Origin: an uncultured delta proteobacterium | Lineage (GTDB): Bacteria; Desulfobacterota; Binatia; UBA9968 | DNA length: 64,000 nt | Reading direction: 5' to 3' | NCBI GenBank assembly: GCA_963847445.1 | Contig: CAWJZV010000028.1 | Coordinates: 60,973 to 124,972 of the forward strand | Part shown: in pieces, positions 11,376 through 50,265 of the stretch | Layout of the letters: each line of letters opens with the position of its first letter | How positions within the stretch are numbered: the first letter of the stretch is position 1 | Made by a program: the position numbers and the translations under genes | Notes under the pieces: model-generated | The model's input: the letters and a program-made list of their open reading frames with translations, nothing else | Told to the model about the DNA's origin: nothing | The model's database searches: none

Positions 11376-12005
11376 TTATCCCGTTGCGCCTGCCAATTCC
11401 TCCGCGATCTTTAGATATTTCTCATGCACTTCCGCGCCCATTTCTTCGGCCTCGTGCTGCGCGAAAGCCGCCAAGAGTTTTTTCTGTTCGTCGGCGGAAA
11501 TCACCTCGTCCGCCATGCGAAAAAGTATCTCGTCTTCTTTCTGAATATGTTCCCTTAGAAGCCGAATGTAAGCTCGCGCGCTGCTAAACAGAACTGCCGC
11601 CGCGGCGTCGTTCTTCGCTTCCAACAGGACGATCGCCGCGGCCATCGCCCGCACATAAGATCGCCCCTCTTCATGTTCCGTCAACATCATGCCGACGGGA
11701 CCACCATCGCTCGGTATGCCGTGTTCCTCCAACGCCGGAAATAAAACTTTCTCCTCTTTGATATGGTGGCACTGATCGGCGAAGTGGCGGATAAAGTCGA
11801 GCGCCTTTTTCCATGAATCCAATGACGCAAGCGCCGGCTTCTCGGTCAATTTTTCCACTGCCGCGAGCACGCGCTCGATAACGCGATGCTCGTCGCTGAG
11901 CAGCGCCGTGGCTTTGTCGGATTGATGATGGCTGCTAGCGGTCAGTGTTGCGTCATGCGCCGAGTGCGCGCGCGACGATTTCTCCGCGTCGGTGCGATTT
12001 TCCAT
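11376..12005 (-). CDS. Hemerythrin (HHE) domain protein
   Basis: EHRVI, HHIKEE.VLFP, EHEEGR and HIQKEDEILF motifs; start MENRTD. Confidence 0.9.
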   Translation of the reverse strand: MENRTDAEKSSRAHSAHDATLTASSHHQSDKATALLSDEHRVIERVLAAVEKLTEKPALASLDSWKKALDFIRHFADQCHHIKEEKVLFPALEEHGIPSDGGPVGMMLTEHEEGRSYVRAMAAAIVLLEAKNDAAAAVLFSSARAYIRLLREHIQKEDEILFRMADEVISADEQKKLLAAFAQHEAEEMGAEVHEKYLKIAEELAGATG

Positions 12006-13151
12006 GGCTATTTTTCCTCTCCATCGCTTTGGGCTGATAAACACAATAGGGATCGCTGCGCATCGGATCGCCGGTGATCGCGTAAGCCCGCGACCGGCTA
12101 CCGCCGCAGATCGATTTGAACTCGCACACGCCGCACTTGCCTTTGAGTTGGCTGAAGTCGCGCACGCGGGTAAACACATCAGACGATCGGTAGATGTCCG
12201 GCAATGGCTGAGAGCGGATGTTGCCGCCGACGAGAGTCAAAAAGCCGCTGGGCTGGACATCGCCGGTGTGAGAAATGAAGACGACGCCGCGGCCGTCGTT
12301 GACGCCGAGCGGCGCGCGCAGAATCTTGGCCGCCTTGCCGTTTGGCGCGACCTCTGTCGGAGTCAGAGACCGTGCGTTCGCCTCGGCGAGCAATTGTTCC
12401 ACGGGCATGGCCAATTCAGCCGCGCGCCGCTGCAACAGCACGCGCCGGTAGTGATAACCTTCGCGCGGCGTGACATCGAAGGGCGCCGACTTCGCCAAAT
12501 CATATAACCAATGAAACAGCGACTCGATCTCTTTCGCGGTGATATTGAGCCGGCGAATCTCCGGACGCGCCGCCCGGCCAACCGCGATGAGTAGAAATAG
12601 CGCCCACAGTTTGATGCCGCGTTCGGCGATCATGGCGGCGATCGCCGGCAAATCGGCCAACACATGGCGCGTCACGGTGGTGTGGATCTGCGACTCCAGG
12701 CCGAATTCGCGGCACCAATCGAGGATATCGAGCGTGCGCTCGAAAGACCCAGTAGACGCCGCGAAAACCATCGTGGGCGGCGCTATCTTTGCCGTCTAGG
12801 CTCACGGCGAGACGAATCAATCCGGCCTCGGCGAATCGGCGCACCGCATCGCGCGTGATCAGCGGCGTCGCCGACGGCGTCATCGCCACGCGCAGTCCTT
12901 CGCTGCGGGCGTACGTCGATGATGTCATAGATATCCGGCCGTTTGGCCGGATCGCCGCCGGTCAAAACAAAGATCGGATAGGGTGAACCGAATGCCTTGA
13001 CGCTTTGGATCAGCCCTTGGGCTTCCGCAAAGCTCAGCTCACTTGGATCGCGCACAGCTCGGGCTTCAGCGCGGCAATGAATGCAGGCAAGATCGCAAGC
13101 CCGCGTGGTCTCCCAAACCACCGTGAATGGCCGTTGATTGAAATCCATCAA
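11953..13151 (-). CDS. Radical SAM/SPASM protein, TIGR04053 / NirJ-Ahb-like (frameshifted)
   Basis: WETTRACDLACIHCRAEA (CxxxCxxC), TGGDP and C-terminal KCGVCEFKSICGGSRSRAYA...DPYC; split over three ORFs. Confidence 0.88.
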
Positions 13152-13162
13152 TGATTCTAATG

Positions 13163-13178
13163 AGCATGTTGCGTGCCA
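13163..13178 (-). promoter_or_regulatory. Putative sigma-54 promoter
   Basis: Minus strand TGGCACGCAACATGCT, 12 nt from the radical SAM start. Confidence 0.6.
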
Positions 13179-13303
13179 CGGCGGCGGCGCGAAGCTAGGC
13201 TAAAGAGCGAAGCTATTCGACGAATGTCGGCGAATTATTGTTGGAGTTGAGAATTGGCTTGAGCGAATTTCCTGTTTTCTGGAAATACTTGGACTTTCTG
13301 ACA

Positions 13304-13870
13304 TCACTTCGGTCGCGCAGCAATGCTCTCACGTTTTCTAACTGCAAGAATGTTATTGGCCAAAAACACAATGACTGCCAGCGTGTTGAGCAAACCGCCC
13401 CAGCGTTGTAGCGCATGCCACGCACCGAGATCGCCGGCGACTCGTAGCAGCAACGACGCGTGCAGCAGGCCGACGTGCAGGTAAAAAGCATTTCGAAACG
13501 GTAGTGGCAAACCCGTAATGGTCGGCAAGATGATTGGCGCGTGAGCAAAGATCATCGAGAAAACGAAGCCCAAGAAAATCGCGTGCAGCATCGCATCGTA
13601 TTTCGGGACGGCGCTGAAAGCTTGCGCCAAGCCTAACCAGAGAATCGCGCCTAGCGCCAACCAAAAATAGCCGGCGATCAAACCGAGCGCCATGTAGCGC
13701 GGCAAGCCTTCTTGGCGCGCCGAATGCCAAGCCAGATCGTAACGGAGCAACCAGAGAGCGATCGCGAGTAAACCCACGGCGGCGATACGCAGGCCAGAAT
13801 GAAAATCGATTAGTGTGCCGCAAAGTCCAATGACGAAAATCGCCACGCTTAGGTAGAATTTCGCGCGCAC
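13304..13870 (-). CDS. NnrS-like polytopic membrane protein, probably C-terminal half only
   Basis: GYFWLALG, YDAMLHAIFLGFVFSMIFAHAPIILP and LLH.SLLLRV; no convincing start. Confidence 0.6.
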   Translation of the reverse strand: MRAKFYLSVAIFVIGLCGTLIDFHSGLRIAAVGLLAIALWLLRYDLAWHSARQEGLPRYMALGLIAGYFWLALGAILWLGLAQAFSAVPKYDAMLHAIFLGFVFSMIFAHAPIILPTITGLPLPFRNAFYLHVGLLHASLLLRVAGDLGAWHALQRWGGLLNTLAVIVFLANNILAVRKRESIAARPK

Positions 13871-14199: not shown

Positions 14200-14630
14200 A
14201 TGAAACTTGGCAAAGAAAGCCGCTATGCGATCGAGGGATTGGCAGTGTTAGCCAGTAAGCCCTTTGGAACCATCATGCACGTACACGATATCGCGGAAGC
14301 CGCTCACGTGTCCCCGAGTTTTCTGGCAAAGATCTTTCAAAAACTCCACCGGGCGAAGCTGTTGACCTCTTCGCGCGGCGCAGTTCGCGGCTACGCCCTC
14401 GCCCGTCGGCCAAACGCGATCAATGTAAGGATATATTTGTCGCGGTCGAGGGCGGCGATGTCTTCGATCGCTGCATTTTTTGGAGCGATCGATGCGCCGA
14501 TCTTTCTCCCTGCCCGATGCATGCGGAGTGGAAACGGGTGCGACAAGCCATCACCAAAAGGATGCAGAGAATAACCTTGGCGGGCATGGCGCGAAAAAAT
14601 CCTGCGAAGCGCATGCGATCGATGCGCTGA
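14200..14630 (+). CDS. Rrf2 family Fe-S transcriptional regulator (frameshift ~14428)
   Basis: SRYA, FLAKIFQKL and SSRGAVRGYALAR; the shifted frame continues VEG...CIFWSDRCADLSPCPMH. Confidence 0.9.
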
Positions 14631-14652
14631 CGAGCCGGGGAGGGACGCTCAG

Positions 14653-16236
14653 ATGAAATTGTTTTTTGCTTCGATGATCGCGCTGGTTCTCGTTTTGAGC
14701 GGCCTCGCCGTGATCAAATCCGCCGAAGTCGTCAAATCACCTCCTGCTTCCTCCCAACTCATTGCGGCCGGAAAGGCTCTCTACGGCCAGCAATGCGCCG
14801 CTTGCCACGGCAACACCGGCCGGGGCGACGGCGAAGCGGCCTATCTGTTGTATCCCAAGCCGCGCGATTTCGTTGCAGCGAGGTATCGGCTGGTTTCCAC
14901 CTGGGATCGCGTGCCGACAGATCAAGATCTCTTCGACACGATTTCGCGCGGCATGCCCGGCTCAGCGATGCCGTCGTGGGAACATCTAACGACGGAGCAA
15001 CGATGGGGCTTGGTCTACTACATTAAATCCTTCGCGGAAAAGCCGATCGAGATAAGATCTCAGAAAATGCCGTCAGCTGACGGGAGCGGCGGCGAGGGTA
15101 TCATAGAAGTTCCCAACCGGTTCCTTTTGATGCGGCGGCAAGAGCACGCGCCCTGGAGCTATATAAGGACGCCTGCGCCTCGTGCCACGGCGCGACGGCA
15201 AGAGGCGACGGCGCGCAAGAGCAAAGAGACGACGAGGGGTTTCCTACCCGGCCGCGTGATCTGACCGCGGGCATTTTCAAAGGCAGCCCCGATCCGATCG
15301 CGCTTTACCGCCATATCGTCGCGGGCATTCCTGGAAGTCCGATGCCGATGAGCGATTGGGCTTACGGCGCTGACGCGTGGCATTTGGTCAATTACGTGCG
15401 CTCGCTCTCCAGCGATCCGCAACGCGAACGCGTGGAGATGAAGAAGTTCACGATTCAAGCGGTACGAGTCACGACTCTTCCGGATCATCCCGAATCGGGA
15501 ATCTGGCGTCTGGCGTCGCCGGTCAATCTTCATCTGATGCCGCTTTGGTGGCGCAGCGAACGGCCGGAAGAAGTGACCGTGCGGGCGGTGCATGACGGCA
15601 AAGAGATCGCCATTCTCATGGTCTGGCACGATGATACAAACGATCAGACCGCACTTCGGCCCCAAGATTTCCGCGATGCATCGGCGATCCAATTTTCGCT
15701 AACCGCTAATCCGCCGTTTTTCGCCATGGGCGAGCAAGCAGCAGCAGTGAATATTTGGATGTGGAAATCCGAGCGGCAAGCCGATCTCCAAACGCGCGTA
15801 TCAAGAGCTGGAATCTGTTTATCCCAATCTTGGTATCGATTCCTATCCGAATCTCATGCGCTCCGCTGTAGAGCAGCCGCATCGTCATGCTCTGACATTG
15901 GAATCGGACCCCTCATTCGTGACCGGCTGGGGTGCCGGGAATATCGTCTCGGATCCAGAACGAAAAAGCCCTGTCGAAGATCTCACGGCTAAGGGATTCG
16001 GCACACTGCAAGCGAGACCCAGGATAGATCAAAAAGTCGGCGCACACGGACTCTACGGGCACGGTTCCTATGAAGTTATGTTCCGTAGATCCTTGTTGCC
16101 CACCGGCCAGGGCGCCGTCGCACTCCGAGCCGGGACTACCGTGCCAGTGGCCTTTGCCGTCTGGAACGGCAGCGCGGGAGATCGCGACGGCAAGAAGTCG
16201 GTGACGATTTGGCAGGATCTAAAAATCGCAAAATGA
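14653..16236 (+). CDS. Diheme cytochrome c fused to ethylbenzene-dehydrogenase gamma-type heme-b (DOMON) domain; NXR gamma candidate (frameshifted)
   Basis: N-terminal hydrophobic helix, CAACH and CASCH (~15174) each followed by PRD and G..MP, then FRDASAIQF, MG, VNIWMWK and VAFAVWNGSAGDRDGKK. Confidence 0.85.
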
Positions 16237-16327
16237 ACGTTGCAAACGTTCAAGCAATTCAAACGTTTTGAACCGCTTGAGGATTGTAACGACTTGAACG
16301 TTTGGAACGGCTGGAACGATTGGAACG
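16234..16327. repeat. TTCAA/TTGAA 9-bp-period inverted repeat element
   Basis: gttcaagc/ttcaaacg units followed by ttgaacg/tggaacg units. Confidence 0.8.
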
Positions 16328-16353
16328 CAAGCGACGTCGTAGGAGCGAGAATA

Positions 16354-19300
16354 ATGAACGATGATGAAGCCAGAGAGATGATGCGGGTAACCCGCCGTGA
16401 CTTCCTCAAGTGGATGGGCATCGGCACCGGCGCAGCGGCCATCGCTGCCGGTTCCTTGCACTATTTCAGACCTGCGGACGCTGGCGACAATCCGCTGGCA
16501 CGGTCGGTCAATCGAGAGTGGGAAAAAATTTACCGCGATCAGTACAAATACGATAGCGCTTTCGATTGGGTCTGCTCGCCCAACGACACCCATGCATGCC
16601 GCGTTCGGGCTTACGTTCGCAATGGCATCGTGACGCGCATGGGGAGCACCTACGATTACCAAGACTACGCCGACCTTTACGGCAACAAAGCAACCGTCAA
16701 TTGGAATCCGCGCCAGTGCGCCAAGGGCTATACCTTTCATCGTGTGATCTACGGCCCCTACCGCCTGCGCCATCCGATCGTGCGCAAAGGTTGGAAGGCC
16801 TGGGCCGATGCCGGCTTTCCCGAACTGACGCCGGAGAACAAAACGAGATACATGTTCGATGCCCGCGGCCAGGACGAGTTCGTGCAAATTTCCTGGCCCG
16901 ACGCCTTCGACTCCATCGCTAAAGCGCTGGTCGCGATTTCAGCACGCGTTACAGCGGCGAGGCGGGGAAAAAACTGCTCCTGGCACAGGGCTATCAACCG
17001 GAAATGGTCGAAGAGATGGGCGGCGCGGGAACACGGACAGTGAAAATGCGCGGCGGCATGGGGCTGCTCGGCGTGATCGGCAAGTACGGTATGTATCGTC
17101 TCAACAACTCGCTCGCGCTGCTCGACGCAAAGATTCGCGGCGTCGGTCCCGACAAAGCCCGCGCCGGGCGCAATTTCTCAAACTATACCTGGCATGGCGA
17201 TCAAGCGCCGGGCCATCCTTGGGTGCACGGCCTGCAAGCTTCCGAATGCGACTTCAACGATCTGCGTTTTTCCAAGCTCATCATCATGGACGGAAAGAAC
17301 CTGGTCGAGAACAAGCTCACGGACTCGCACTGGTTTATCGAATGCATGGAGCGCGGCGCGAAGATTGTCGTGATCGCGCCGGAGTACGGCCCGCCTTCGA
17401 CCAAAGCCGACTACTGGATTCCGATTCGGCCGCAGACCGATGCTGCGCTTTGGCTCGGGATTACCAAGCTGATGATCGACAAGAAATGGTACGACGAAAC
17501 TTTCATCAAGCGCTTCACCGATTTCCCGCTGCTGGTGCGCACCGACAATCTAAAACGGCTGCGCGCCCAGGAGATTTTCCCAGATTATAAGACCACGCTC
17601 GCCGCCGATGGGGCGTCCATGAAAATCCAAGGATTGACCGCCGAACAGCACGCGCAACTCGGCGACTTCGTGATTTGGGACGCAAAGAAGAACGGCCCGG
17701 TAGCAATCACGCGCGATGATGTGGGCGAGGCTATGGCAAAAAAAGGCTTGGACCCTGCACTCACCGACACTTTCAAGGTTAAACTGCTCGACGGCAAGGA
17801 AGTCGAAGTCGCGCCGTTGTGGACGCTCTATCAAACCCACTTGAAGGACTATGACCTCGACACCGTCGCCGATATCACCAGCGCGCCGAAAGCGATGATC
17901 GAGCAGCTCGCGCAGGATATCGCGACCATGAAGCCGGTGGCGATTCATCAGGGCGAAGGGATCAACCACTGGTTCCACGCCACGGAAATGAACCGCGCGT
18001 CATACTTACCGTTGATGCTGACGGGCAACATCGGCAAGCCCGGCGCCGGCTGCCATACCTGGGCCGGCAACTACAAAGCCGCCCTGTTCCAGGGATCGCC
18101 CTGGTCCGGACCCGGTTTCAAGGGCTGGGTAGCCGAAGACCCATTCGAAATTAATTTAAATCCCAATGCCCACGGCAAAGAAATTCACGCCCACGCGTAC
18201 ACCAAAGACGAAGAACCTGCTTATTGGAACCATGGCGATCTCGCCTTGATCGTCAACACGCCCAAGTTCGGGCGCAAAAATTTCACCGGCAAGACCCACA
18301 TGCCGACGCCCACCAAAGCTTTGCTCTTTAACAACGTCAACCTGATCAATAATGCCAAGTGGGCCTACGGCATGATCAAGAATGTCAACCCGAATGTCGA
18401 AATGATTGTTTCGATGGACATTCAGATGACCGCTTCCATCGAGTATGCGGACCTCGCGCTGCCCGCCAACTCGTGGCTCGAATTCGAAGGCTTGGAAATT
18501 ACCGCGAGCTGCTCAAATCCATTTCTACAAATTTGGAAAGGCGGTATTCCGCCGGTCTTCGACAGCAAAGATGACCTCGACATCATCGCTGGCATCGCCA
18601 ATGCGCTCGCCAACGTCACCGGCGAGAAGCGATTCCGCGATTACTTTGCCTTTGCCGCCGCCGACAAACGGGGCATTTACATCCAGCGCCTGCTCGATAC
18701 CTGTACGACGACGGCCGGTTACAAGCTCACTGATATCATGGCCGGCAAGTACGGCCCTCCGGGCGGCTGTTTGCTAAACTTCCGCACCTATCCGCGCATT
18801 CCCTTCTATGAACAGGTGCATGACAGCGAACCGTTCCATACGGACACAGGACGGATGCATGCTTACGCGGACGTGCCTGAGGCGATCGAGTACGGCGAAA
18901 ATTTCATCGTGCATCGCGAAGGACCGGAAGCGACGCCGTATCTGCCCAATGTGATCGTCAGCTCCAATCCGCTGGTGCGGCCGGAGGATTACGGCATTCC
19001 CACCAACGCCGAGCACTGGGACGAGCGCACCATCCGCAACATCAAGATGCCCTGGAGCAAGGTGAAGCAGACCAAGAACTTTCTCTGGGAAAAGGGCTTC
19101 CAGTTCTACTGCTTGACGCCAAAGACGCGCCACCGGGTCCATAGCGGCTGGTCCAACGTCGACTGGCATATGCTGATGGATTCTAACTTTGGTGATCCCT
19201 ACCGCCTGGACAAGCGAGCGCCCTGCGTCGGCGAACATCAAATGCACATGAATCCGCAGGCGGCGCGTGATCTCAATATTAATGATGGCGACTATGTTTA

Positions 19301-19823
19301 CGTCGACGCCAATCCGGCCGACCGACCGTATCTCGGCGCCAAGCCCGACGATCCGTTCTATCGCGTGTCGCGCCTTATGCTGCGCGTCACTTACAACCGC
19401 GCTTATCCATACAACATCGTCATGATGAAACATGCGCCCTTTATCGCCACGGAGAAAAGCGTGAAGGCGCACGAGACCCGTCCCGATGGCCGCGCTTTAT
19501 CGGAGAACACCGGCTATCAAGCCAACCTGCGCTACGGTTCGCAGCAGTCGATCACGCGCAACTGGCATATGCCGATGCATCAGACCGACACTTTGTTTCA
19601 CAAAGCCAAAGTGTCGATGAGCTTCATCTTCGGCGGCGAAGCCGACAATCACGCCGTCAACACCGTGCCAAAAGAAACCCTGGTGCGCGTGACCAAAGCC
19701 GAAGACGGCGGTATGGGCGGCAAAGGGATCTGGAAGCCGGCGACGACGGGTTATTCGCCGGACAACGAAAACGATTTGATGAAACGATATCTGGCGGGAG
19801 ATTTGACGAAAGTGAAAGTGTGA
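16354..19823 (+). CDS. nxrA: Periplasmic nitrite oxidoreductase/nitrate reductase alpha subunit, anammox/Nitrospira type (frameshift ~16947)
   Basis: Tat motif TRRDFLK, FS0 motif C-X3-D-X3-C-X39-C (CSPNDTHAC...RQC), NYTWHGDQAPG, HTWAGNYKA and VHREGPEATPYLPN; AGGAG RBS at 16341. Confidence 0.92.
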
Positions 19824-19825
19824 GA

Positions 19826-19987
19826 TGAACACGTTCAAGCCGTTCCAATCGTTCAACCCGTTCAACCCCCTCCTTAGTCCTCCCCCACGGGCGCGGGGGA
19901 GGAAAGGAATCGGAGGTTCGAACGACTGAAACCTCCGAAACGGTTTGAACGGAGCGCAGCGATTGAACGGCTTGAACGATTGGAACG
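19826..19987. repeat. Composite palindromic repeat (TTCAA arm, two hairpins, TTGAA arm)
   Basis: Near-identical to 21705..21870; core cctccccc..gggggagg and tcggaggtt..aacctccga. Confidence 0.9.
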
Positions 19988-20009
19988 CGAGCGACGAAGG
20001 AGCGAGATA

Positions 20010-20447
20010 ATGCCCTTTAAAGACCCCGACCCCACCGACCCGAACATGCTCGTCGGCGTGATGCTTTCTGCCGACGCCGAGGCAACCCGTGACATGGCCT
20101 ACGTCTTCGCCGAGGAATTCGCTCGTCTCGGCTATACGAGAGAGCAATTGCTCTGGCTGTTTAAGAATCCCTTCTACGGCGGCGCCCATGGCGCCTACCG
20201 AGCGCTCGGAGAAAACGAGACGCAGTCGATCATCGATGAATGCTTGAACGTCTGGGGCACCATCAGAATAACAGTTCAAGACGTTCAAACAGTTCAAACC
20301 GATCAAACCCCCTCCTCAATCCCCCGCGTCGCGGGGGAGGAAGGGAATCGGAGGTTCGAATCTCTGAAACGGTTTGAACGGAGCGAAGCGATTGACCGGC
20401 TTGAACGGTTTGAACCTTCGCGACGAGAGGAGCGAGACGATGACTAA
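20010..20447 (+). CDS. Small protein between nxrA and nxrB, C-terminus encoded by a repeat copy
   Basis: MPFKDPDPTDPNMLVGV...FAEEFARLGY..LFKNPFYGG; AGGAG RBS; stop overlaps the nxrB start. Confidence 0.75.
   Translation: MPFKDPDPTDPNMLVGVMLSADAEATRDMAYVFAEEFARLGYTREQLLWLFKNPFYGGAHGAYRALGENETQSIIDECLNVWGTIRITVQDVQTVQTDQTPSSIPRVAGEEGNRRFESLKRFERSEAIDRLERFEPSRREERDDD
20272..20416. repeat. Composite palindromic repeat copy inside a CDS
   Basis: Same arms and ccccc gcg tc gc ggggg agg core as the 19826 and 21705 copies; second hairpin partly deleted. Confidence 0.85.
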
Positions 20448-21705
20448 GGTTCACAACTGGCAGATCGGCCGGGAGATGAATTATCCTTATCCGCAGGCAT
20501 TCCCGCGCCGCCAATTCGCCTTCGTCTTCAACATCAACCGCTGCATCGCCTGCCAGAGCTGCACCATGGCGTGCAAGTCGACTTGGACTTTCAGCAAGGG
20601 CCAAGAGCATATGTGGTGGGCCAACGTCGAGACCAAACCCTACGGCGGCTATCCGCAGTTCTGGGACGCCAAGATTCTCGACCTGATGGAGAAAGCCAAT
20701 CCCGGCAATCAGCAATGGTCGGGCAAACCTTCCGCCGATAAGCAGAAACCCTACGGCCAGTTCGACGGCATGACGATCTTCGAAGCGCAAAACATGCTGA
20801 CGCCGGACAGCGCGCGTGTACTCGGCTATCTGCCGACGGATGAAGAATGGAATTCGCCGAACATTTTCGAGGACAATCCGGTTGGAAAAAAAGGCGTGCG
20901 CAATGAACTGGATAAAGAAGGCACCGCGCTGCCGGAACACAAGACCTGGTTCTTTTATCTGGCGCGTATCTGCAACCATTGCAGCTATCCCGCTTGTCTA
21001 GCCGCCTGCCCGCGCAAGGCGATCTATAAACGGCCGGAAGACGGCATCGTTTTAATCGACCAAAAAGAATGCCGCGGCTATCGCAAATGCGTTGAAGCCT
21101 GCCCGTACAAGAAATCAATGTACCGCGGCAACACCCGGGTGTCGGAAAAGTGCGTCGGCTGTTATCCGCGTGTCGAAGGCAAAGATCCCGAAAGCGACGG
21201 ACAGCCGATGGAAACCCGCTGCATGGCCGCCTGCATCGGCCAGATCCGCATGCAGGGGCTAGTGAAGATGAACAACGACGGCAGTTGGGCCGAGGACCGC
21301 TACAATCCGCTTTATTACATGGTCCACGTCGCAAAAGTCGCCCTGCCGCTCTATCCACAGTTCGGCACCGAACCCAACGGCTATTACATCCCGCCGCGCT
21401 GGGTGCCGCGCGATTATCTGAAACAAATGTTCGGCCCCGGCGTCGATGACGCCATCGAGCGCTACAGTTATCCGGACCGCGAACTCTTGGCGGTGCTACA
21501 ACTTTTCCGCCGCTCGAACCGGATCATCTTCCGCTACGAAATCAAAGAAGGGCCGCAGATTTACGAAGCGACCCTGCGCGGAAGAAAAATCACCATGTAT
21601 AACGACACCGTGATCGCCTACGGCCAGAACGGTAAAGAAATTTTTCGCACCCAGGTCGAAGAACCGGTGCATGTGCGGCCCAACAAACATGCGAACTCGA
21701 TATGA
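20440..21705 (+). CDS. nxrB: NXR/NAR beta subunit (Fe-S), anammox/Nitrospira type
   Basis: VHNWQIGR, FNINRCIACQSCTMACKSTW, CNHCSYPACLAACP, CRGYRKCVEACP, KCVGCYPR and LYPQFGTEPN. Confidence 0.93.
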   Translation: MTKVHNWQIGREMNYPYPQAFPRRQFAFVFNINRCIACQSCTMACKSTWTFSKGQEHMWWANVETKPYGGYPQFWDAKILDLMEKANPGNQQWSGKPSADKQKPYGQFDGMTIFEAQNMLTPDSARVLGYLPTDEEWNSPNIFEDNPVGKKGVRNELDKEGTALPEHKTWFFYLARICNHCSYPACLAACPRKAIYKRPEDGIVLIDQKECRGYRKCVEACPYKKSMYRGNTRVSEKCVGCYPRVEGKDPESDGQPMETRCMAACIGQIRMQGLVKMNNDGSWAEDRYNPLYYMVHVAKVALPLYPQFGTEPNGYYIPPRWVPRDYLKQMFGPGVDDAIERYSYPDRELLAVLQLFRRSNRIIFRYEIKEGPQIYEATLRGRKITMYNDTVIAYGQNGKEIFRTQVEEPVHVRPNKHANSI

Positions 21706-21870
21706 TTCAAAGGTGTTCAAACCGTTCCAATCGTTCAAGCCGTTCAACCCCCTCCTCAGTCCTCCCCCGCGTTCGCGGGGGAGGAAGGGAATCGGAGGTT
21801 CAAACGATTGAAACCTCCGAAACGGTTTGAACGGAGCGAAGCGATTGAACGGTTTGAGCGGTTTTAACGA
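21705..21870. repeat. Composite palindromic repeat
   Basis: Near-identical to 19826..19987. Confidence 0.9.
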
Positions 21871-21890
21871 TTCGGCAGGTGAGGTAGCCA

Positions 21891-22698
21891 ATGAACACCA
21901 ACTAAGTCCAATGTCCATCAAGAGAGTAACGATCTCGATGCTACCTTTTGCCGAGCCGCACTTTACAGCGCGCTGGCGATTGGCTTCCAGGCGCCGACGG
22001 TGGAAAATCTCGCCCGCTTGCTCACGACGGAAAGCCGCGCCGCGCTCATCGGCGCGGCCAGTCTGCTCTATCCGTCCGGCGAGCCTGATCTGATTTCCGT
22101 AATCGAGACGTTCCCCAATTTTAATGAGGCGTATTTGACGGACGTCGCCTCACGCCACCGCGAGCTGTTCGGTCACACCGTGCGCGGACCGATTCCGCCT
22201 TACGAGACCGAGTACGGCAACGAAGCGTTGTTTCAGCTACCCCATGAATTGGGCGACTTGATGGGATTCTACAACGCCTTCGGCCTGATATTGAAGCCGG
22301 GCCAGCGCGAGCGCGCTGATCACATCAGCTGCGAATGCGAGTTCTTGATGTTTCTCGCGCTCAAAGAAAGTTATGCATTGGAGCATGAAGACCGAGAAAT
22401 GTTGGCGGAAACCCAGAAGGCGGAAAGATTATTTCTGCGCGACCACCTCGGCCGATTCCTGCCAACCTTTGTCTCCAAGCTTAGGCGCCATGAAGACTCC
22501 GGCTTCTATGGATTGCTCGGCGATCTTTGCCTGCGTTTGGTTACGGCGGAATGCAGCCGATTACAGGTTCCATCCGGCGCCGCCAATCTCGATCTTCGAC
22601 CGGCCGATGACGACCGCGTGCCGATGGCCTGCGGCAGCGGCACCGACTGTGGCGCGATGCCCGGTGCCTGCGTGCCGGAGGAAGCCGATTCGGTATGA
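21891..22698 (+). CDS. TorD/DmsD/NarJ family molybdoenzyme chaperone (indel near start)
   Basis: PPYETEY, GFYNAFG, ERADHISCECEF and FLRDHLGRF; GAGG RBS before ATG 21891. Confidence 0.88.
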
Positions 22699-23675
22699 AC
22701 CAAGCTCTGAACCTCGTTTACGGGCCGCGCTTGATCGAAGAAGCGGTGTTTCTCGCCCAGCACGACAGCGATATTTCCGCGGAGCTCCAAGAACGGCGCA
22801 ATCGTATTTACGAAATCGCCGACGCCGACGAGCGCGACCGGCGGTTTAACGAACTCAACCGGGCTTGCTTCGATCGCCTTGGTTTAGGCAAGGTCATCGG
22901 CCAGAGCTTGCAAGAACAACCCCTCATCGGTGCCCACGTCGAGCGCGGCTTCGTGGTCGGCGCGACCCAGGCCAAAGAAGAGGGCGCCGAGCTGTTCGTC
23001 GCGCCGGATGAAATAAACAATGGCCACGGCCACCGCACGCTGCGACTGCTCCTCCGCCCCGAATCGCTGCTTAATGAAGATGGGTTGCGCCCCTTCTTAC
23101 GCCATGAATTGTTCCATATCAGCGATATGCTCGATCCGACATTCGACTACGAACCAACCCTGCCGAAGGCCGAGGGCGGGCCGACCTACGATACCCTGAT
23201 TACGAGTCGCTATCGTGTGCTCTGGGATGTGACGATCGCCGGCCGCATGGTGCGGCGCGGCTGGTGCGCCGCCACCGTTCGCGATCAAGAGTTCAAAGAC
23301 TTCCGCCAAGCCTTTCCAATGTTGAACGGCGAGTCTGATGAGTTTTTCAAGCGCTTCTTTGATGCCGCGGCACCGCGCCATAATGAACTTGCCGCCTTCG
23401 CCTTCGACCCGAGGGCGGCCACGGACAGTGTCTCAAACCAAGCGGTCGCGGGAACCCACTGTTCCTTATGTCGCTTTCCCACGCACGCTTTTGAAACCGC
23501 GCCTGCGAATCTCGGCGCTGAAGTTTTAGCAGCGATCAAAGCAGATTTTCCCGACTGGACTCCGGCAAGGGGACTCTGTGTTCAATGCGCCGATCTCTAC
23601 CGTGGCCGTCAACTGTCGATGGCGGCGGCAACTTCTGCCCGGATAGTACCTGGTCAACGCACCAGTCGCTCATAG
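22695..23675 (+). CDS. Hypothetical protein with HEXXH motif and C-terminal CxxC...CxxC
   Basis: LRHELFHISD, CSLCRFP and CVQCADLY; ATGA-coupled to the chaperone. Confidence 0.75.
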   Translation: MNQALNLVYGPRLIEEAVFLAQHDSDISAELQERRNRIYEIADADERDRRFNELNRACFDRLGLGKVIGQSLQEQPLIGAHVERGFVVGATQAKEEGAELFVAPDEINNGHGHRTLRLLLRPESLLNEDGLRPFLRHELFHISDMLDPTFDYEPTLPKAEGGPTYDTLITSRYRVLWDVTIAGRMVRRGWCAATVRDQEFKDFRQAFPMLNGESDEFFKRFFDAAAPRHNELAAFAFDPRAATDSVSNQAVAGTHCSLCRFPTHAFETAPANLGAEVLAAIKADFPDWTPARGLCVQCADLYRGRQLSMAAATSARIVPGQRTSRS

Positions 23676-23737
23676 ATACAATTTTACCGCGGGAGTTCAC
23701 AAAATCGCAGTCCAAGAACCGAAGGGATCGATTCACC

Positions 23738-24830
23738 ATGCGAAACTTCGATGAGCTATTAAAGAGTCTTCGGCCATCCACGGCCACCAGTGCGCCGGGC
23801 AAATCTTGGGCGTCCGCATGGCGATGCTGGGATGCCGCGAAGTCGCCATCGACGAGCCGCGCGGCTGCAAGAAGCTGATCGTTTACGCCGAGATCGACCG
23901 CTGCGCCACCGATGCCGTGCAGGCGGTCACCGGCTGCTCGCTCGGCAAACGGACCTTAAAATTTCTCGACTACGGCAAGATGGCGGTGACCTTCCTCAAC
24001 ACCGAGACCGGGCGAGCGGTGCGAGTGTTGGCGAAAGACGACGCGCGCAAGCTGGTGCCGCTGTATGTCCAAGACAGCGCCAATTCGCGCGACGCACAAA
24101 AACAAGCCTATCGAATCATGCCCGAAGAAGCGCTTTTCGCCGTTAAACCGGTAACGATCGAAGTTCCCCCTCAAGAGATGCCCGGCTATCGCGGCAAACG
24201 GGTGGAGTGCGCCGAGTGTGGCGAGGGCATAAATTTCAATCGCGAAGTCGAGCGCGGCGGCCGTATGCTCTGTATCCCTGCTCACAGGAACAACTGCGCT
24301 CGAACGGTCACGCCAGTGGAGCAAAAACAGCCAACCCTAAAGTCCTATTGATTGTCGGCTCCAAGAAAGTCGGCAAAACAACTTTGATCGAGAGACTGAT
24401 CCCCGAGCTCTCTCGGCGCGGCTATCGAGTCGGCACGGTGAAGCATCATCACTCGGATTTCCCTATTTCAGTCGATACCGCGGGCACCGACAGCTGGAGA
24501 CACCGTCAAGCCGGCGCCACCGGTGTCGCACTGGTGACGCCGACCGACATCGCGCTGTTCCGCAACGGCGAAGATTCGCTTTCTCTCGATGACATCGTCG
24601 CCGGCTTGGGCGCAACCGATATTGTCTTAGTCGAAGGATTTCACAACGAACCGCGAGTCAAAATCGAAGTGCGCTCGGCTCGCAGCGATGCGGCGTTGTG
24701 CGAGAAGGACAAGAACCTGCTTGCGGTTGTGGCGCCAGAGGCACACCCCGCTTCGGTGCCGAGCTTTGTGCCCGAAGACATCCAGCCCATCGCCGATTTC
24801 ATCGAACGCGAGATTTTGGCGCGAACCTAA
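23738..24830 (+). CDS. mobB: FmdE-family zinc protein fused to MobB (two single-base indels)
   Basis: HGHQCAGQILGVRM, EIDRCATDA, TGCSLGKRTL and CAECGE, then GSKKVGKTT, KHHH, DTAGTDSWRH and LVEGF. Confidence 0.8.
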
Positions 24831-25631: not shown

Positions 25632-25669
25632 TTGTTCCTATTATCAGAACCATGAAATCGGGGTGGTCA

Positions 25670-26828
25670 ATGACAACTGTCGAGAATATCGTTTCTCGCT
25701 ATCGCGAGCCGCTGGAGAACTCTCCTCTCGATCTCGTCCAAGATTGGAAACGGGCCCACCCTGAAGCAAAGATCGTCGGCTGCTATCCGGTCTACACTCC
25801 CGTCGAACTCATCCATGCCGCTGGAATGCTCCCGGTCGGCGTCATTGGCGCGGGCAACCGGTTGGAGATCGCCCACGCAGATTCGCGTTTTCAGTCTTTC
25901 GTCTGCTCGATTGTTAAGAGCACGCTAGAGCTGGGGCTCACCGATAAACTAAAATTTCTCGACGGCATCGTCTTCCACTCGATCTGCGACCCGGCGCGCA
26001 ATCTCGGCAGCGTCTTCAAACGCAACTTTCCCGATCTCATGGTGGAGTACATTCACTTTCCGCAGAACATGACTTCGCCCCATACCATCGATTATTTGAT
26101 CGCCGAGTACAAAAGAATCAACGTCAGCTATGAGCAACTATCCGGAAGAAAAATTACCGACCAAGCGCTGCGAGAAAGTATCGCGCTCTACAATGCTCAG
26201 CGGCGCTTAATCCGGCAACTCTACGCCATCCGCCGAGAAACGCCGCAGAATCTTTCGACGGTTGAGTGTTACGTCCTGACGCGTATCGGTACGCTGCTGC
26301 CGCCGGAGGAACATATCGCGATCCTTGAAGAGGCGATCCCACAGCTACGCCAACGCAACGAAAAGCCCAAGGACCGGATTAGAGTCGTCCTCGAAGGCTC
26401 GTTCTGCGAGCAGCCGCCCATTGAGCTGCTCGACGGACTGGAGGCGGCGGGTTGTTATATCCTGGACGACGATTTCCTCATCGGCTGGCGCTGGTTTTCC
26501 GACGATATTCCCACCGAAGGCGATCCCCTGCGCAACATCGCTAACGCCTATTTCAACCGCAGTGTTTATTCCGGCGTGAAGCACGACACCCGCGAGCCGA
26601 AAGCGAAACATCTGATCGACAAATACAAAGACAGCCGGCGCCGCCGCGGTGTTGATCCTCGCCGCCAAATTCTGCGAGCCGGCGCTATTCGACTACGCGC
26701 TCTATAAACGGGCACTGGAGAAAGAGGGTATTCCACACCTCTGCCTCGAGTTCGAGGAAAAGATGTGGATCTTCGATAAGGCGCGCACGGAAGTGGAAAC
26801 GTTTGTCGAGTCAATGCTCTTCGATTAG
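25670..26828 (+). CDS. bcrC: Class I benzoyl-CoA reductase subunit C (BcrC/BadD-like; frameshift ~26630)
   Basis: PVELIHAAGMLPVG, SICD..RNL, PQN, GSFCEQPP and KFCEPA...FEE motifs. Confidence 0.85.
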
Positions 26829-26837
26829 GAGAATTTT

Positions 26838-28143
26838 ATGGCGCAAACAGCGGTAGCCGAAAAAACTCAGTACCAGGGTCAGATGCATCTGCTGCAGAAA
26901 GAGCTGATGGGGCGCTACTTCGAGCGCGTCACCCGGGCCGCGGAACAGGGCGAGGGCAAAGCCGTCTACATGTTGATCAGCGGCAACCCGGTGGAGCTGA
27001 TCCAGGCATTCGACTCTGATCCCGGTCTATCCGGAGATCGACGCCCTGCAGCTGGCGGCGAAGAAAAGCGCCCTGCCCTTTATCTTGAAGGCCGAGGAGT
27101 TGGGCTACTCGATGGACAACTGCGCCTACGTGAAAGCCGATGTCGGCCTGTTTCTCGGCGACCGCAAAACCCCGTTCGCAACCATCCCACTGCCCTCGCT
27201 GATTCTCTGCAACTACGTCGGCTGCAATGTCTACTTGCAGTGGTTCGAGCACCTGGCCGAATACTGCGATGGCCAACTCTACAACCTCGACATTCCGTTC
27301 TTGCGCGACCCGTCCGGCGTGCCGAGCCCGGAGGACGTTACTTATGTCGTGCGCCAACTCGAAGAAGTGATCGAAGATCTGCGAACGGCTGACCGGGAAG
27401 AAAGCTCGACTACGCACGGCTCAAACAAATCGTCAGCCGCTCGAGTGAAACCGGCGAGATGTGGTCGCGGATCAAGGCGCTGACCAGGAATCTGCCTTCT
27501 CCCTTCGACGCCTACTTCGACTCGGTGACCATGATGGCGCCGCTCTACTGCCTGCGGGGAACCGAAGAAGGCGTGCGCTTTTTCGAGACCGCCCTCAAAG
27601 AGATGGAGGAGAAAGTGCGCCTGGGCCAGGGGCCGTTACCCCAGGAGCGCTTCCGCTTCGTCATCGAAGGACCGCCGCCTTGGGGCCATCTGCGAACCTT
27701 TAGAGATATGTTTTCCAAATGGGGCGCGGTGGCAGTGGCTTCGACTTACTCCACCGTCGGCGGCCTGTGGGAATTCGGTTTCAGGCATGACTGCCAATCA
27801 CCCGTTGGAATCCATCGCCCAGCATATGCTCCAGTGGAACGTCACCAACCGCAACTTCCTGCAGCGCTACCAGCAGATCCGCCGCTATGTCGAAGAGTGG
27901 CATGCCGACGCTCTGGTGATTCATTCGGTGAAAAGCTGCCGGCTGTTTTCCGCGGGACAGGGCGACATGCGCGAATATTTCACCAAAGAGTTGAACGTTC
28001 CCACTCTATTGATCGAATCGGATTTCGAAGATCCGCGCTATTTTTCCGAAGCCCAGCTCAGGAACCGCATCGACGCATTTTTCGAATCCTTGGAACACAA
28101 GAAAATGGTCCGTGCCGGAGCGGAAGCGGGAGGGGCAGCATGA
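26838..28143 (+). CDS. bcrB: Class I benzoyl-CoA reductase subunit B (BcrB/BadE-like; several frameshifts)
   Basis: [47 protein letters not shown] and DPRYFS. Confidence 0.88.
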
Positions 28144-28980
28144 TTTACGCCGCAGGCATTGACGTTGGCTCGACTCAGACTAAAGGGATTATCCTCAACG
28201 ACAAGTTCGAGATCGTCGCCCGAGCCTTGACCGACACCGGCGCCTACGTCACCAGGGCCGCGGAACGATGCTTCGTCGAAGCGCTGCAAATCGCCGGCGT
28301 CAAGCGCGAAGATGTCGCCTACGTCGTCGGCACCGGTTACGGCCGATACAAGGTCACCTTCGGCGACGCCCAGATTACCGAGATCAGCTGCCATGCGCGC
28401 GGCGCCAGCTACCTCTTTCCCAACACCCGCACGGTGATCGACATGGGCGGCCAGGATGCCAAGGGCATCAAGATCGGCATCGATGGCGACGTCAAAGACT
28501 TCGTCATGAATGACAAATGCGCCGCCGGCACGGGAAGATTTCTCGGCAGCGCCGCCGACGCTCTGGGCATGCGCCTTGGACGACATCGGCGACATCTCGC
28601 TCAAGGCGAAAAATCCGGTGCGGCTCACCACCGTGTGCACGGTGTTCGTCGAGTCGGACATCATGTCCTACCTGGCCCAGGGCAAGAAGACCGAAGATAT
28701 CCTCGGCGGCGTGCACAGCGCCATCGCCGCGCGGACGATTTCGCTGATTCGTCGCGTCGGCATCGAGCCGGAAGTCACTTTCACCGGCGGGGTTTCGAAA
28801 AATATCGGCATGGTGCGCGCGCTCGAAGAAAAACTCGGCATGAAACTCAACGTCAGCCCGGATTCCCACTTCGTCGGCGCCCTCGGCGCGAGCATCTTCG
28901 CCCTCGAACGCGCCGCCAAGGCAACCGGCGAAAGGCAGCAAGCAACCGGAATCGACGGCCGGGCCTACTGTCTAACTTAA
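28140..28980 (+). CDS. BCR ATPase (ASKHA activase) subunit 1 (frameshift ~28570)
   Basis: [42 protein letters not shown] and CTVFVES. Confidence 0.9.
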
Positions 28981-28989
28981 GGAGGCATC

Positions 28990-50191: not shown

Positions 50192-50265
50192 GCGGCGACG
50201 GATTACCAACGGCACGGACGCCCAAGCGATCCGTATGACTGACCCATAGTCCGGGATGAACTACC

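Follow-up and report, generated by a model that had tools for sequence, protein, structure and literature searches.

A plus-strand operon filling positions 14200–24830 of the window (the whole stretch of 64,000 nucleotides analysed, from an uncultured Binatia bacterium) was found to encode a molybdoenzyme whose alpha and beta subunits belong, on the support of sequence similarity and motifs, to the lineage of the periplasmic nitrite oxidoreductases (NXR). In its host, a heterotroph-like Binatia MAG, the enzyme on balance seems likely to act as a cytochrome-c-fed respiratory nitrate reductase, converting nitrate to nitrite at low oxygen. The genes follow one another in the order listed, with the repeat lying between them.

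14200..14574, plus strand: Rrf2-family transcriptional regulator, truncated (Pfam Rrf2, 60.4 bits)
14653..16236, plus strand: gamma subunit, alt-NxrC type (Pfam Cytochrome_CBB3/Cytochrom_C and EB_dh)
16354..19823, plus strand: NxrA-type Mo-bisPGD catalytic subunit with Tat signal (profile and structure-chain matches)
19833..19987, no strand: palindromic intergenic repeat, 155 nt (repeat families D1–D4, inverted pairs I1–I3)
20010..20447, plus strand: small conserved ORF in the nxrA–nxrB gap (tblastn, 74 of 80 loci)
20440..21705, plus strand: NxrB-type four-cluster Fe-S subunit without signal peptide (Fer4_11, 84.9 bits)
21916..22698, plus strand: TorD/NarJ-type chaperone (NxrD), start codon uncertain (Nitrate_red_del, 65.7 bits)
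22695..23675, plus strand: conserved cassette protein with an HExxH-type site and a C-terminal 4-Cys site
23758..24830, plus strand: FmdE-MobB fusion, predicted to serve Mo-bisPGD cofactor supply (Pfam FmdE 96.5 bits, MobB 138 bits)

The intact NxrA of the orthologous locus L001 matched the Kuenenia NXR chain 7b04_B (PDB 7B04) with 1788.2 bits, and the C-terminal part of the window's own NxrA did so with 1501.9 bits, against 189, 177 and 111 bits for PcrA, EbdA and NarG. NxrB aligned with 7b04_A over its full length (607.8 bits), PcrB being second at 196.7 bits, while PcrAB, EbdAB and NarGH gave 197, 184 and 167 bits for the beta subunit; both subunits are thus far nearer to Kuenenia NXR than to these families, in keeping with the periplasmic NXR grouping proposed in the first-pass annotation. 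TIGR01580 scored 60 bits on alpha (cut-off 1084), and NCBIfam subfamily models also remained below their cut-offs (347.6/984.75, 242.6/480.7 and 123.5/169.85). The features on which that proposal was built were each located where it had placed them, namely the beta subunit, the chaperone, the Tat-signalled alpha N-terminus (MMRVTRRDFLKWMGIGTGAAAIAAG), the FS0 motif (CSPNDTHAC, 39 residues, then C, i.e. C-x3-D-x3-C-x39-C) and NYTWHGDQ, which the alignment sets against Asp275, the Mo ligand of Kuenenia NxrA. The comparison with Kuenenia NXR disclosed conservation of C67-x3-D71-x3-C, N70 and D275. The likeness to Kuenenia NxrA that the first-pass annotation had named was right, because GFPELTPENK, RGGMGLLGVIGKYGMYR and HREGPEATPYLPN stand both in the window and in 7b04_B. 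The Tat signal scored 20.2 bits with Pfam TAT_signal, below the cut-off of 22.7, and 17.2 bits with TIGR01409 (cut-off 16.7) on the L001 orthologue.

These comparisons make it quite unlikely that the enzyme reduces another oxyanion (chlorate, perchlorate, selenate) or dehydrogenates some other substrate, as do enzymes of the type II DMSO-reductase group. PcrA and EbdA are indeed the next-best solved relatives, soil contigs are described as pairing uncharacterised pNxr-like enzymes with chlorite dismutase (PMC9751292), and the host bin G000 has one Chlor_dismutase-family gene (C48:46950-47573, 192.5 bits). However, that gene sits on another contig, and since the same Pfam family also matches seven control genomes from organisms that do not reduce chlorate, it may encode a haem-synthesis enzyme; moreover, the PcrA score is ten times lower, and the enzyme has N70, D275 and long stretches of the active site exactly as in Kuenenia NXR.

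The first-pass annotation had correctly listed alpha, beta and chaperone, and the operon is free of a NarI-type gene in the Pfam profile search, as it had stated, but the gamma subunit had been overlooked, so that a third subunit is not absent. This protein has a Sec-like N-terminus, two cytochrome c domains (CAACH and CASCH) and a fused EB_dh haem-b domain. It occupies three frames owing to single-base errors, one near 15116 and one near 15795, the intact 527-aa L001 gamma aligning by tblastn with 14653–15117 (frame 1), 15114–15791 (frame 3) and 15796–16233 (frame 1). L001 gamma matched 6h5l_B with 132.2 bits and 7b04_C with 99 bits, and the haem-b ligands Met155 and Lys305 are conserved.

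Among the accessory genes, the chaperone was covered by the tblastn alignment of its L001 orthologue at 21916–22695, this orthologue scoring 93.4 bits with TIGR03482, below the cut-off of 152.3. The Rrf2 match spans only profile positions 3–74 of 132, with a base missing near 14428; its intact orthologue (L071:5016-5606) gave 98.5 bits with TIGR00738 and, as NsrR, 37 bits against a cut-off of 182. FmdE-MobB changes frame somewhere from 24225 to 24279, the 360-aa L001 protein aligning in two frames. About 90 N-terminal residues of the small ORF are conserved, its tail extending into the intergenic repeat; searches of Pfam and NCBIfam returned no family for it, and the Atlas only 'hypothetical protein' clusters, at 0.80–0.83. 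The HExxH/4-Cys protein likewise matched no Pfam or NCBIfam family, although E138, H141, D144, C256, C259, C295 and C298 are invariant across 31 sequences. Its AF2 model (pLDDT 90.9) had no Foldseek match at E ≤ 0.001, and structure comparison (VIA) gave a top Z of 6.1, with zincin-like chains at Z 4.6–5.1.

Five frame changes occur within 10.6 kb of the operon, and a decaying pseudogene cluster, dead in this strain, had to be weighed. NxrA is split into 16240–17043 and 17004–19823 by two extra bases near 16942–16949, and the indel noted earlier at about 16947 is genuine, the alpha frame shifting between 16938 and 16956; the further frameshifts in Rrf2 and FmdE-MobB had escaped notice. Frame-restoring indels were present in other public runs at four of the five sites (14428, 15116, 15795 and 16942; 93–100% likeness), the fifth (FmdE-MobB, 24225–24279) lying outside the coverage of the compared runs. 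Contigs of X4 and X6 have an additional C behind 14428 and both restoring indels of gamma, and the two bases at 16942 are absent from contigs of X4 (DNA) and X15 (RNA library), although X6 is without this deletion (0 of depth 11.1). HsdM and DnaJ, elsewhere in the window, are likewise split, nxrA of the long-contig relative L071 is interrupted at another position, and the operon pieces are 86–96% identical in amino acids to intact orthologues, with frames internally free of stops. The frameshifts are assembly errors and the operon was therefore taken as functional, decay being most improbable.

Comparison with Kuenenia stuttgartiensis NXR-ABC (kustd1700/1703/1704; PDB 7B04; Chicano et al. 2021, PMC8387239) showed that alpha, beta and the gamma haem-b domain align over their full length (1788, 608 and 99 bits), and the FS0 Cys3/Asp ligands, Asn70, Asp275, Met/Lys haem b, Tat export signal and TorD-type chaperone are common to both. 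The Binatia gamma differs in having two c-haem domains fused to it, whose likeness is to a dihaem cytochrome that Kuenenia has as a separate protein (6h5l_B, 132 bits); NXR-T, the cupredoxins and the bd-like membrane protein have no place in the Binatia operon, and the anammoxosome and tubules of Kuenenia are not to be expected in its heterotroph-like host. For Nitrospira and Nitrospina, compared by description only, Lucker et al. 2013 (PMC3578206) list 'alternative NxrC' gamma candidates with one to three c-haem sites plus a haem-b domain and count among the genes conserved with NXR one for a TorD-like chaperone and one for a putative zinc-finger protein, all of which have counterparts in the cassette.

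Cytoplasmic NarGHI (E. coli, PDB 1Q16) shares the superfamily and the cofactor chain and can reduce nitrate, as can the NXR type, but its alpha gave 111 bits only, its FS0 ligand is His at another position in place of Asp, and, unlike the Binatia enzyme with its Tat signal, it has the quinol-oxidising anchor NarI. EbdABC, PcrAB, Ser and Clr are, like the Binatia system, built of alpha, beta and gamma, with an EB_dh haem-b domain in gamma; they too have a TorD-type chaperone and are coupled to c-type cytochromes, whereas the scores against these soluble periplasmic enzymes are lower by a factor of about ten (189 and 177 bits). The 'NarGHI' of Thermogutta terrifontis (PMC5673643), a cultured heterotroph whose nitrate respiration is described as involving a deep-branching enzyme of the Nar/NXR cluster, together with a TorD chaperone and NrfAH, was placed by Suarez et al. 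in the same major clade as NXR; it is described with NarI and as cytoplasmic, unlike the Binatia enzyme, and is compared from that description only.

The cassette is not rare. Relatives are encoded on at least 761 stretches of species-representative genomes, and all six core genes were present in 39 of 80 fetched loci, with identical order and strand in every one of the 39 and a spread over about ten phyla. In the FastTree phylogeny the window copy fell within a Binatia sub-clade (23 rows, support 96) nested in a multi-phylum clade of 59 rows (support 100). Cassettes reported from uncultured Methylomirabilota/Rokubacteria, Acidobacteriota, KSB1, Planctomycetota and Gemmatimonadota (PMC9562985, PMC10732223) have the same six genes in the same order, with alpha identities of 79–97% and no difference of substance, and raise the same question of direction. 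Hundreds of species-level non-nitrifier genomes carry this cassette, which makes the Binatia copy an ordinary one, and published accounts of it exist, Binatia included.

The operon product would be a periplasmic alpha-beta-gamma enzyme, soluble or loosely attached to the membrane. NxrA would fold in the cytoplasm around Mo-bisPGD, aided by the TorD-type chaperone and with the Mo cofactor supplied by the adjoining FmdE-MobB gene product, and be exported by Tat with NxrB probably hitch-hiking, while gamma would leave by Sec. Electrons are predicted to pass between the Mo site and the exterior by way of FS0 (Cys3/Asp), four further Fe-S clusters, a haem b of high potential with Met/Lys ligation, and the two c haems fused on the same polypeptide, a chain that would plug the enzyme into the periplasmic cytochrome c pool and not into quinol via NarI.

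We know of no sequence feature that tells the direction of such an enzyme, and the NXR type is reversible in vitro. Purified Kuenenia NXR is reported to reduce nitrate at 1.5 µmol/min/mg and to oxidise nitrite at 61 nmol/min/mg (PMC8387239). A Binatia 'NarG' was given unique peptides after a nar/nxr tree in a river-sediment study (10.1101/2022.03.11.484050), though this protein, known from its description, may not be of the NXR type. The host is not a known nitrite-oxidising or anammox taxon, same-genus records being named 'Candidatus Binatia bacterium' or 'delta proteobacterium', and its neighbouring genes (TctABC, BcrAD/HGD-D, acyl-CoA dehydrogenase, Glu/Leu/Phe/Val dehydrogenase) are organotroph-like, as had been remarked. 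Nitrospira and Nitrospina are autotrophs with rTCA and special oxidases, whereas searches of G000 found neither RuBisCO, which was likewise found in none of 37 genomes from the relatives set, nor a cytochrome bd family protein, nor hydrazine synthase alpha. As no match to narG or NapA exceeded the cut-off in G000, the NXR-type enzyme is its only candidate dissimilatory nitrate reductase; of the 61 genomes in the relatives set, G000 included, none had narG above the cut-off and one had NapA. G000 also encodes NrfA (465.9 bits) and, in split form, qNor, both of which would consume nitrite or NO, and this bin, 6.9% contaminated, is the only one of 37 genomes with both NXR and NrfA. NirK and NirS gave no meaningful scores, so that nitrate respiration would stop at nitrite in most carriers.

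The NXR-type identity thus stood, and of the two directions first offered, both of which remain candidates, we lean, on indirect evidence, towards nitrate reduction. Facultative nitrite oxidation, in which the c haems of gamma would hand electrons on to cytochrome c and an aa3/cbb3-type oxidase, is a weaker but real possibility, and would give a heterotroph without autotrophy a supplementary energy source. The lineage is that of the only known periplasmic nitrite oxidoreductases, and to our knowledge all its physiologically studied members (Nitrospira, Nitrospina, anammox) oxidise nitrite in vivo. Haem-copper oxidases are encoded at four or more loci of G000, among them an aa3-type operon some 27 kb upstream of the cassette on its own contig. 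As an argument for nitrate reduction, NrfA does not extend beyond G000; it was found in 0 of 11 family relatives with high-identity NXR and in 9 of 25 without it (one of the nine, G005, being an unpublished genome). Metagenomes of soil and sediment from 13 studies contain near-identical DNA. Against this direction count the small energy yield for a large metalloenzyme, the scarcity of free nitrite in soil, the missing RuBisCO and Nitrospira-kind bd-like oxidase, and a family without other respiratory nitrate reductases. The Met/Lys haem b and c-haem gamma suit the proposed electron exit, as such a gamma was proposed to pass nitrite electrons to cytochrome c (Lucker et al., PMC3578206), and nitrite oxidation has been proposed for Planctomycetota, KSB1 and groundwater MAGs (PMC10732223, PMC9562985). 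Neighbours with a nitrosative-stress theme suit either direction; these are the Rrf2 regulator, an NnrS-like protein and a hemerythrin that weakly resembles RIC/YtfE, which recur in Binatia-clade loci (10, 7 and 8 of 80 loci, respectively).

Last, further copies of the 155-nt repeat lie at 20274–20415 and 21715–21869, with a partial copy at 16287–16336, and genome-wide blastn gave 58 hits on 22 contigs, five of them of at least 120 nt.

The operon at 14200-24830 was found to be a single row of genes on the + strand, and it holds the only NXR copy of the host genome, a 7.19 Mb assembly of 48 contigs with 57.5% GC, 91.8% completeness and 6.9% contamination. The genes are the following.

14200-14574, + strand: Rrf2-family regulator; the Pfam match ends at profile position 74 of 132
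14653-16236, + strand: gamma subunit, combining cytochrome c and EB_dh domains and broken into three frame pieces
16240-17043 and 17004-19823, + strand: Mo-bisPGD alpha subunit (nxrA), in two pieces
20010-20447, + strand: small ORF, conserved part 20010-20290
20440-21705, + strand: beta, the four-cluster Fe-S subunit (nxrB)
about 21916-22698, + strand: TorD/NarJ-type chaperone (NxrD)
22695-23675, + strand: 326-aa protein without family
23758-24830, + strand: FmdE and MobB

The alpha subunit starts with RRDFLK followed by a hydrophobic stretch, the features of a twin-arginine signal. The intact reference orthologue L001 scored 17.2 bits with TIGR01409 (cut-off 16.7), and the window alpha 20.2 bits with Pfam TAT_signal, slightly below the cut-off of 22.7. 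The FS0 motif CSPNDTHAC-x39-C (C-x3-D-x3-C-x39-C) aligned with C67, N70 and D71 of 7b04_B, the alpha chain in the Kuenenia NXR structure (PDB 7B04), and NYTWHGDQ aligned with the Mo ligand Asp275. Equivalents of the Kuenenia FS0 ligands Cys67, Asp71 and Cys75, of the substrate-side Asn70 and of Asp275 (PMC8387239) are all kept in this alignment. The three motifs had been noticed in the first-pass annotation, and the three long alpha stretches named there as Kuenenia-like were likewise found, both in the window and in the 7b04_B alignment.

The C-terminal part of the window alpha scored 1501.9 bits against Kuenenia NxrA, and the intact L001 alpha 1788.2 bits against 7b04_B versus 189.3 for PcrA, 176.6 for EbdA and 110.7 for NarG. 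For beta, the score was 607.8 bits with Kuenenia NxrB versus 196.7 (PcrB), 184.3 and 167.1 for other type II enzymes. Scores against 7b04_B, which serve as a proxy for placement beside a tree whose rows are MAG sequences only, were 1788 for the Binatia-type, 1747 and 1715 for two Chloroflexota-type and 1590 for one Planctomycetota-type sequence. With alpha and beta far closer to Kuenenia NXR than to PcrA/B, EbdA or NarG, the NXR-type interpretation already put forward is supported: the observation of a periplasmic NXR-type operon is confirmed, and sequence likeness supports its assignment to the periplasmic NXR lineage. Beside these scores, action on another substrate appears very improbable.

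Alpha, beta, a TorD-type chaperone and the absence of NarI had been recognised correctly, and no NarI-like membrane subunit gene is present in the operon, but a third subunit had been overlooked. The gene directly upstream of nxrA encodes a gamma subunit in which two cytochrome c domains (CAACH, CASCH) are fused to a haem-b domain. It scored 99 bits against the Kuenenia gamma chain 7b04_C, and its FFAMG and DGKKS segments aligned with Met155 and Lys305, which ligate haem b in that chain (PMC8387239, Chicano et al.). In its c-haem part it is similar to a dihaem cytochrome that is a separate protein in Kuenenia (6h5l_B, 132.2 bits), and c-haem sites combined with a haem-b domain are also described for the gamma candidates in the accessible part of Lucker et al. 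(PMC3578206). Gamma is intact in 51 of the loci compared, with a length of 525-622 aa. As a difference from NarGHI, the best TIGR01580 match anywhere in the host genome reached 70.7 bits against a cut-off of 1084.

Proteins of L001 aligned with the window in changing frames at ~15116 and ~15795 (gamma), at 16938-16956 (alpha) and at 24225-24279 (FmdE-MobB), the alpha site being the indel placed near 16947 in the first-pass annotation. Contigs of other public runs, compared at a likeness of at least 93%, differ by frame-restoring changes: one C inserted after 14428, one G inserted after 15116 and a single base missing at 15795 in the contigs of X4 and X6, and two bases missing at 16942 in X4 and in the RNA-library contigs X15, but not in X6. 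No such contig covers 23847-24900, so the FmdE-MobB site lies outside the comparison. HsdM methylase and DnaJ genes are also frame-split outside the operon (2451-3946, 50256-51385 and others), which indicates a general indel error rate of the assembly, and nxrA of another long-contig relative is split at a different position. On these grounds the frame changes are read as assembly errors, and a dead operon, which the broken frames might suggest, is given next to no credence. X15 contigs match nxrA-nxrB with 93-99% likeness, and almost none match the flanks; they show only that the population or close relatives were present in the library, neither expression level nor direction, and uncovered parts were not taken as transcriptional silence.

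Of 7997 candidates scored in a protein search, 2348 passed E<=1e-50; identity was 82-96% for the best 120 of these, which carried the names KSB1, Rokubacteria, Binatia, Actinomycetota, Limnocylindrales, Acidobacteria and Vicinamibacterales. Every name from the homologue searches was that of a MAG, Pirellulales and Dehalococcoidia among them. When one genome per species was scanned, at least 771 stretches matched, at least 761 of which encode a relative. Among the best 80 of these stretches, the six core genes (gamma, nxrA, the small ORF, nxrB, the chaperone and the 326-aa protein) were all present in 39 loci, with the same order and strand in 39/39. For 39 of the 41 incomplete loci the contig stops short of where the missing genes would be; L057 and L079 showed no gamma within 1.5 and 4 kb upstream, respectively. 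A FastTree phylogeny of 71 rows, composed of MAG sequences only and without named Nitrospira, Nitrospina or Brocadiales rows, placed the window in a clade of Binatia type with 23 rows and a support of 96, nested in a tight multi-phylum clade of 59 rows with a support of 100 and a stem length of 0.19, outside which Chloroflexota- and Planctomycetota-type sequences branch next. In a clustered library a single representative, at 64% identity, stands for the whole lineage, and identity falls to 44% at the next full-length one. Further type II molybdoenzymes, 41-59% identical to NxrA, were noted in some relatives and in other phyla, at L046, G015:C3 and C5, G034:C131 and G031:C837, of which L046, together with representative P0125, falls outside the NXR-type clade.

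The copy in the window is therefore an ordinary case of a known, widespread and already published cassette type. In the accessible parts of the respective sources, Mosley et al. treat diverse MAGs with NXR homologues as 'potentially novel nitrifiers' (PMC9562985), Suarez et al. describe NxrA of the Kuenenia kind from MAGs of Planctomycetota and KSB1 and call its direction not assignable (PMC10732223), and Barnum and Coates mention uncharacterised pNxr-like enzymes on soil contigs (PMC9751292). In the available text of Rodriguez-Ramos et al. a tree of nar and nxr sequences serves 'to resolve novel Binatia role', and peptides of a Binatia 'NarG' were detected (10.1101/2022.03.11.484050), while the available text of PMC12638822 holds nothing on Binatia NXR; PMC12780646 (Sporomusa) concerns Nap and was set aside as not relevant.

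Two proteins of the cassette are uncharacterised. The ORF of ~90 aa between nxrA and nxrB was present in 74 of the best 80 loci (out of at least 771) with the consensus MPxxDPDPxDPxxLVGV...FAEEFAR...PFYxGAH...WG, and matched no Pfam or NCBIfam family. In the 326-aa protein E138, H141 and D144 (HExxH-type) and C256, C259, C295 and C298 are invariant. Its AF2 model (pLDDT 90.9) retrieved nothing at E<=0.001 from the solved structures with Foldseek; the highest VIA-align Z was 6.1, for a partial helix match, with 4.6-5.1 for zincin-like chains, and Atlas gave hypothetical clusters and a SprT-like lead at 0.79. Among conserved companions of NXR, the accessible part of Lucker et al. (PMC3578206) lists a zinc-finger protein and a chaperone resembling TorD; the 326-aa protein may be the companion which that 2013 study calls a 'putative zinc finger'. 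The FmdE domain and MobB form one 360-aa protein in relatives, found 3' of the cassette in 12/80 loci.

The closest alpha sequences, among the best 80 of at least 771 stretches, are 94-97% identical and come from Binatia. As these nearest alphas and the same-genus genomes are labelled Binatia or delta proteobacterium, the host is a member of a Binatia lineage, neither a known nitrite oxidiser nor an anammox taxon. An alpha of high identity occurs in 9/30 same-genus genomes and in 2/6 genomes of other genera of the family, but in 0/24 genomes from two other families of the order; 3/300 further genomes of the phylum matched at E<=1e-250, two at 83-90% identity and one at 60%. This patchy distribution fits gain by transfer followed by loss.

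The organotroph-like neighbours named in the first-pass annotation, TctABC, BcrAD/HGD-D and an amino-acid dehydrogenase, are indeed present in the flanks, together with SDR, enoyl-CoA hydratase, acyl-CoA dehydrogenase and 2-oxoacid:ferredoxin oxidoreductase genes. A 2-hydroxyacyl-CoA dehydratase/benzoyl-CoA reductase-type cluster (HGD-D, BcrAD/BadFG ATPase domains) occupies 25652-29766 and is followed by SDR, amidohydrolase, enoyl-CoA hydratase and acyl-CoA dehydrogenase genes. Divergently upstream of the operon, at 11376-13870 on the - strand, lie NnrS-like, radical SAM/SPASM and hemerythrin genes. The second, frame-split in the window, is a TIGR04053 member related to AhbD/NirJ (438 bits for the orthologue in the long-contig relative L071), and the hemerythrin has a weak RIC/YtfE likeness; the cluster recurs 5' of the cassette in several Binatia-clade loci.

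Apart from nitrite oxidoreductase, no biological source of nitrate is known. In marker-gene surveys nxrA is scored as 'nitrite oxidation', and as matches number thousands among database proteins and at least 761 among genomic stretches, counts based on it can err badly either way. The window is one more example of a periplasmic NXR type whose carriers are for the most part uncultured non-nitrifiers; in itself the copy contributes little, and the direction question, real and important, is no more testable here than in hundreds of other copies.

As to that direction, the cassette enzyme somewhat more probably works as a nitrate reductase. No narG or NapA exceeded its cut-off in the host genome, and in the set of relatives including it the counts were 0/61 and 1/61, so that the cassette is the sole candidate respiratory nitrate reductase of the host. 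Of the CO2-fixation and hzs genes named in the first-pass annotation, the RuBisCO large subunit was not found in the host genome (91.8% complete) or in any of the 37 genomes of the relatives set, which also favours nitrate reduction, and hydrazine synthase alpha (PF18582) was found in 0/11 genomes including the host, which differs in this from anammox bacteria. The nitrosative-stress theme among the neighbour genes points the same way, as do the rates of Kuenenia NXR in vitro, where nitrate is reduced ~25x faster than nitrite is oxidised (PMC8387239). Cultured nitrate respirers add to this lean: Thermogutta has a deep Nar/NXR-cluster enzyme according to the accessible part of PMC5673643, and Limisphaera 'distant NarGHI homologs' whose enzyme type is not visible in the available text of PMC13608581.

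Facultative nitrite oxidation is a less probable reading, yet one with arguments of its own, for all studied members of the NXR lineage oxidise nitrite in vivo and oxidases are present in the host genome, with at least four haem-copper oxidase loci, one an aa3-type operon ~27 kb upstream of the NXR operon. Cytochrome bd (PF01654) gave no match in the host genome (91.8% complete) and matches in 9 control genomes; a cytochrome bd-like oxidase is conserved together with NXR in Nitrospira, Nitrospina and Kuenenia, from which the host differs in this respect. ATP-citrate lyase (PF16114) and NosZ (PF18764) gave no match either, and the control genomes were likewise silent, so both are uninformative. 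NirK (42.8 bits, cut-off 296) and NirS (26 bits on part of the profile) were read as not found in the host.

The host genome also carries NrfA (465.9 bits), beside which NrfH was not confirmed, and a split qNor. A fixed NXR-to-NrfA (DNRA) pathway, proposed from this genome, was rejected: NrfA is present in 9/25 family genomes without the cassette, one of the nine (G005) being an unpublished genome, and in 0/11 NXR-carrying family relatives, so that both occur together only in the host (1/37). Failure of the DNRA idea among relatives counts against nitrate reduction. The pattern reflects either two ecotypes or a mixed bin, the host assembly having 6.9% contamination.

A broader proposal, which we regard as speculative and rather doubtful, is that horizontal transfer has spread the cassette among heterotrophs of about ten phyla, Binatia included, as a module that couples nitrite oxidation to cytochrome c. 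If so, ordinary heterotrophs of soil, sediment and groundwater would burn nitrite with oxygen without autotrophy, organisms that nobody has regarded as nitrifiers would account for a sizeable, unrecognised part of the nitrate formed, and the mutual exclusion of NXR and NrfA among the window's relatives would mark two opposite lifestyles on nitrite.

By analogy with type II DMSO-reductase enzymes, Mo-bisPGD would be inserted into alpha in the cytoplasm with the help of the TorD-type chaperone, alpha and beta would be exported together via Tat, and gamma via Sec. Electrons would pass between Mo, FS0, FS1-4, haem b, the two haems c and the cytochrome c pool; as no quinol-oxidising subunit is encoded, they would be exchanged with complex III/ACIII or a cytochrome c oxidase via c-type carriers. 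What the study yields besides the copy is a fixed cassette of six genes, two of them for conserved proteins that are uncharacterised, a c-haem/b-haem gamma as the standard electron port, and the lack of co-occurrence of NXR and NrfA among close Binatia relatives.

Two further molybdoenzymes of the host were considered and rejected, one on contig C48 as NapA-like, its neighbours forming an NAD-linked formate-dehydrogenase-type cluster, and one on C2 (37% identity), which is a 764-aa non-type-II enzyme. A Chlor_dismutase-family gene (G000:C48:46950-47573, 192.5 bits, 388-aa open frame) lies on another contig than the operon and, the family being ambiguous, may encode either a chlorite dismutase or a haem-synthesis enzyme.

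A 155-nt palindromic repeat was observed at 19833-19987, 20274-20415 and 21715-21869, with a partial copy at 16287-16336, and occupies the spacers nxrA/small ORF, small ORF/nxrB and nxrB/nxrD. Its 9-nt periodic GAACGGTTT-like arms flank a GC-rich hairpin, and in Binatia the tail of the ~90-aa ORF reads into it. The repeat gave 58 blastn matches over 22 contigs of the host genome, some adjoining a haem-copper oxidase locus on contig C6, and is present in relatives at identical positions of the operon.
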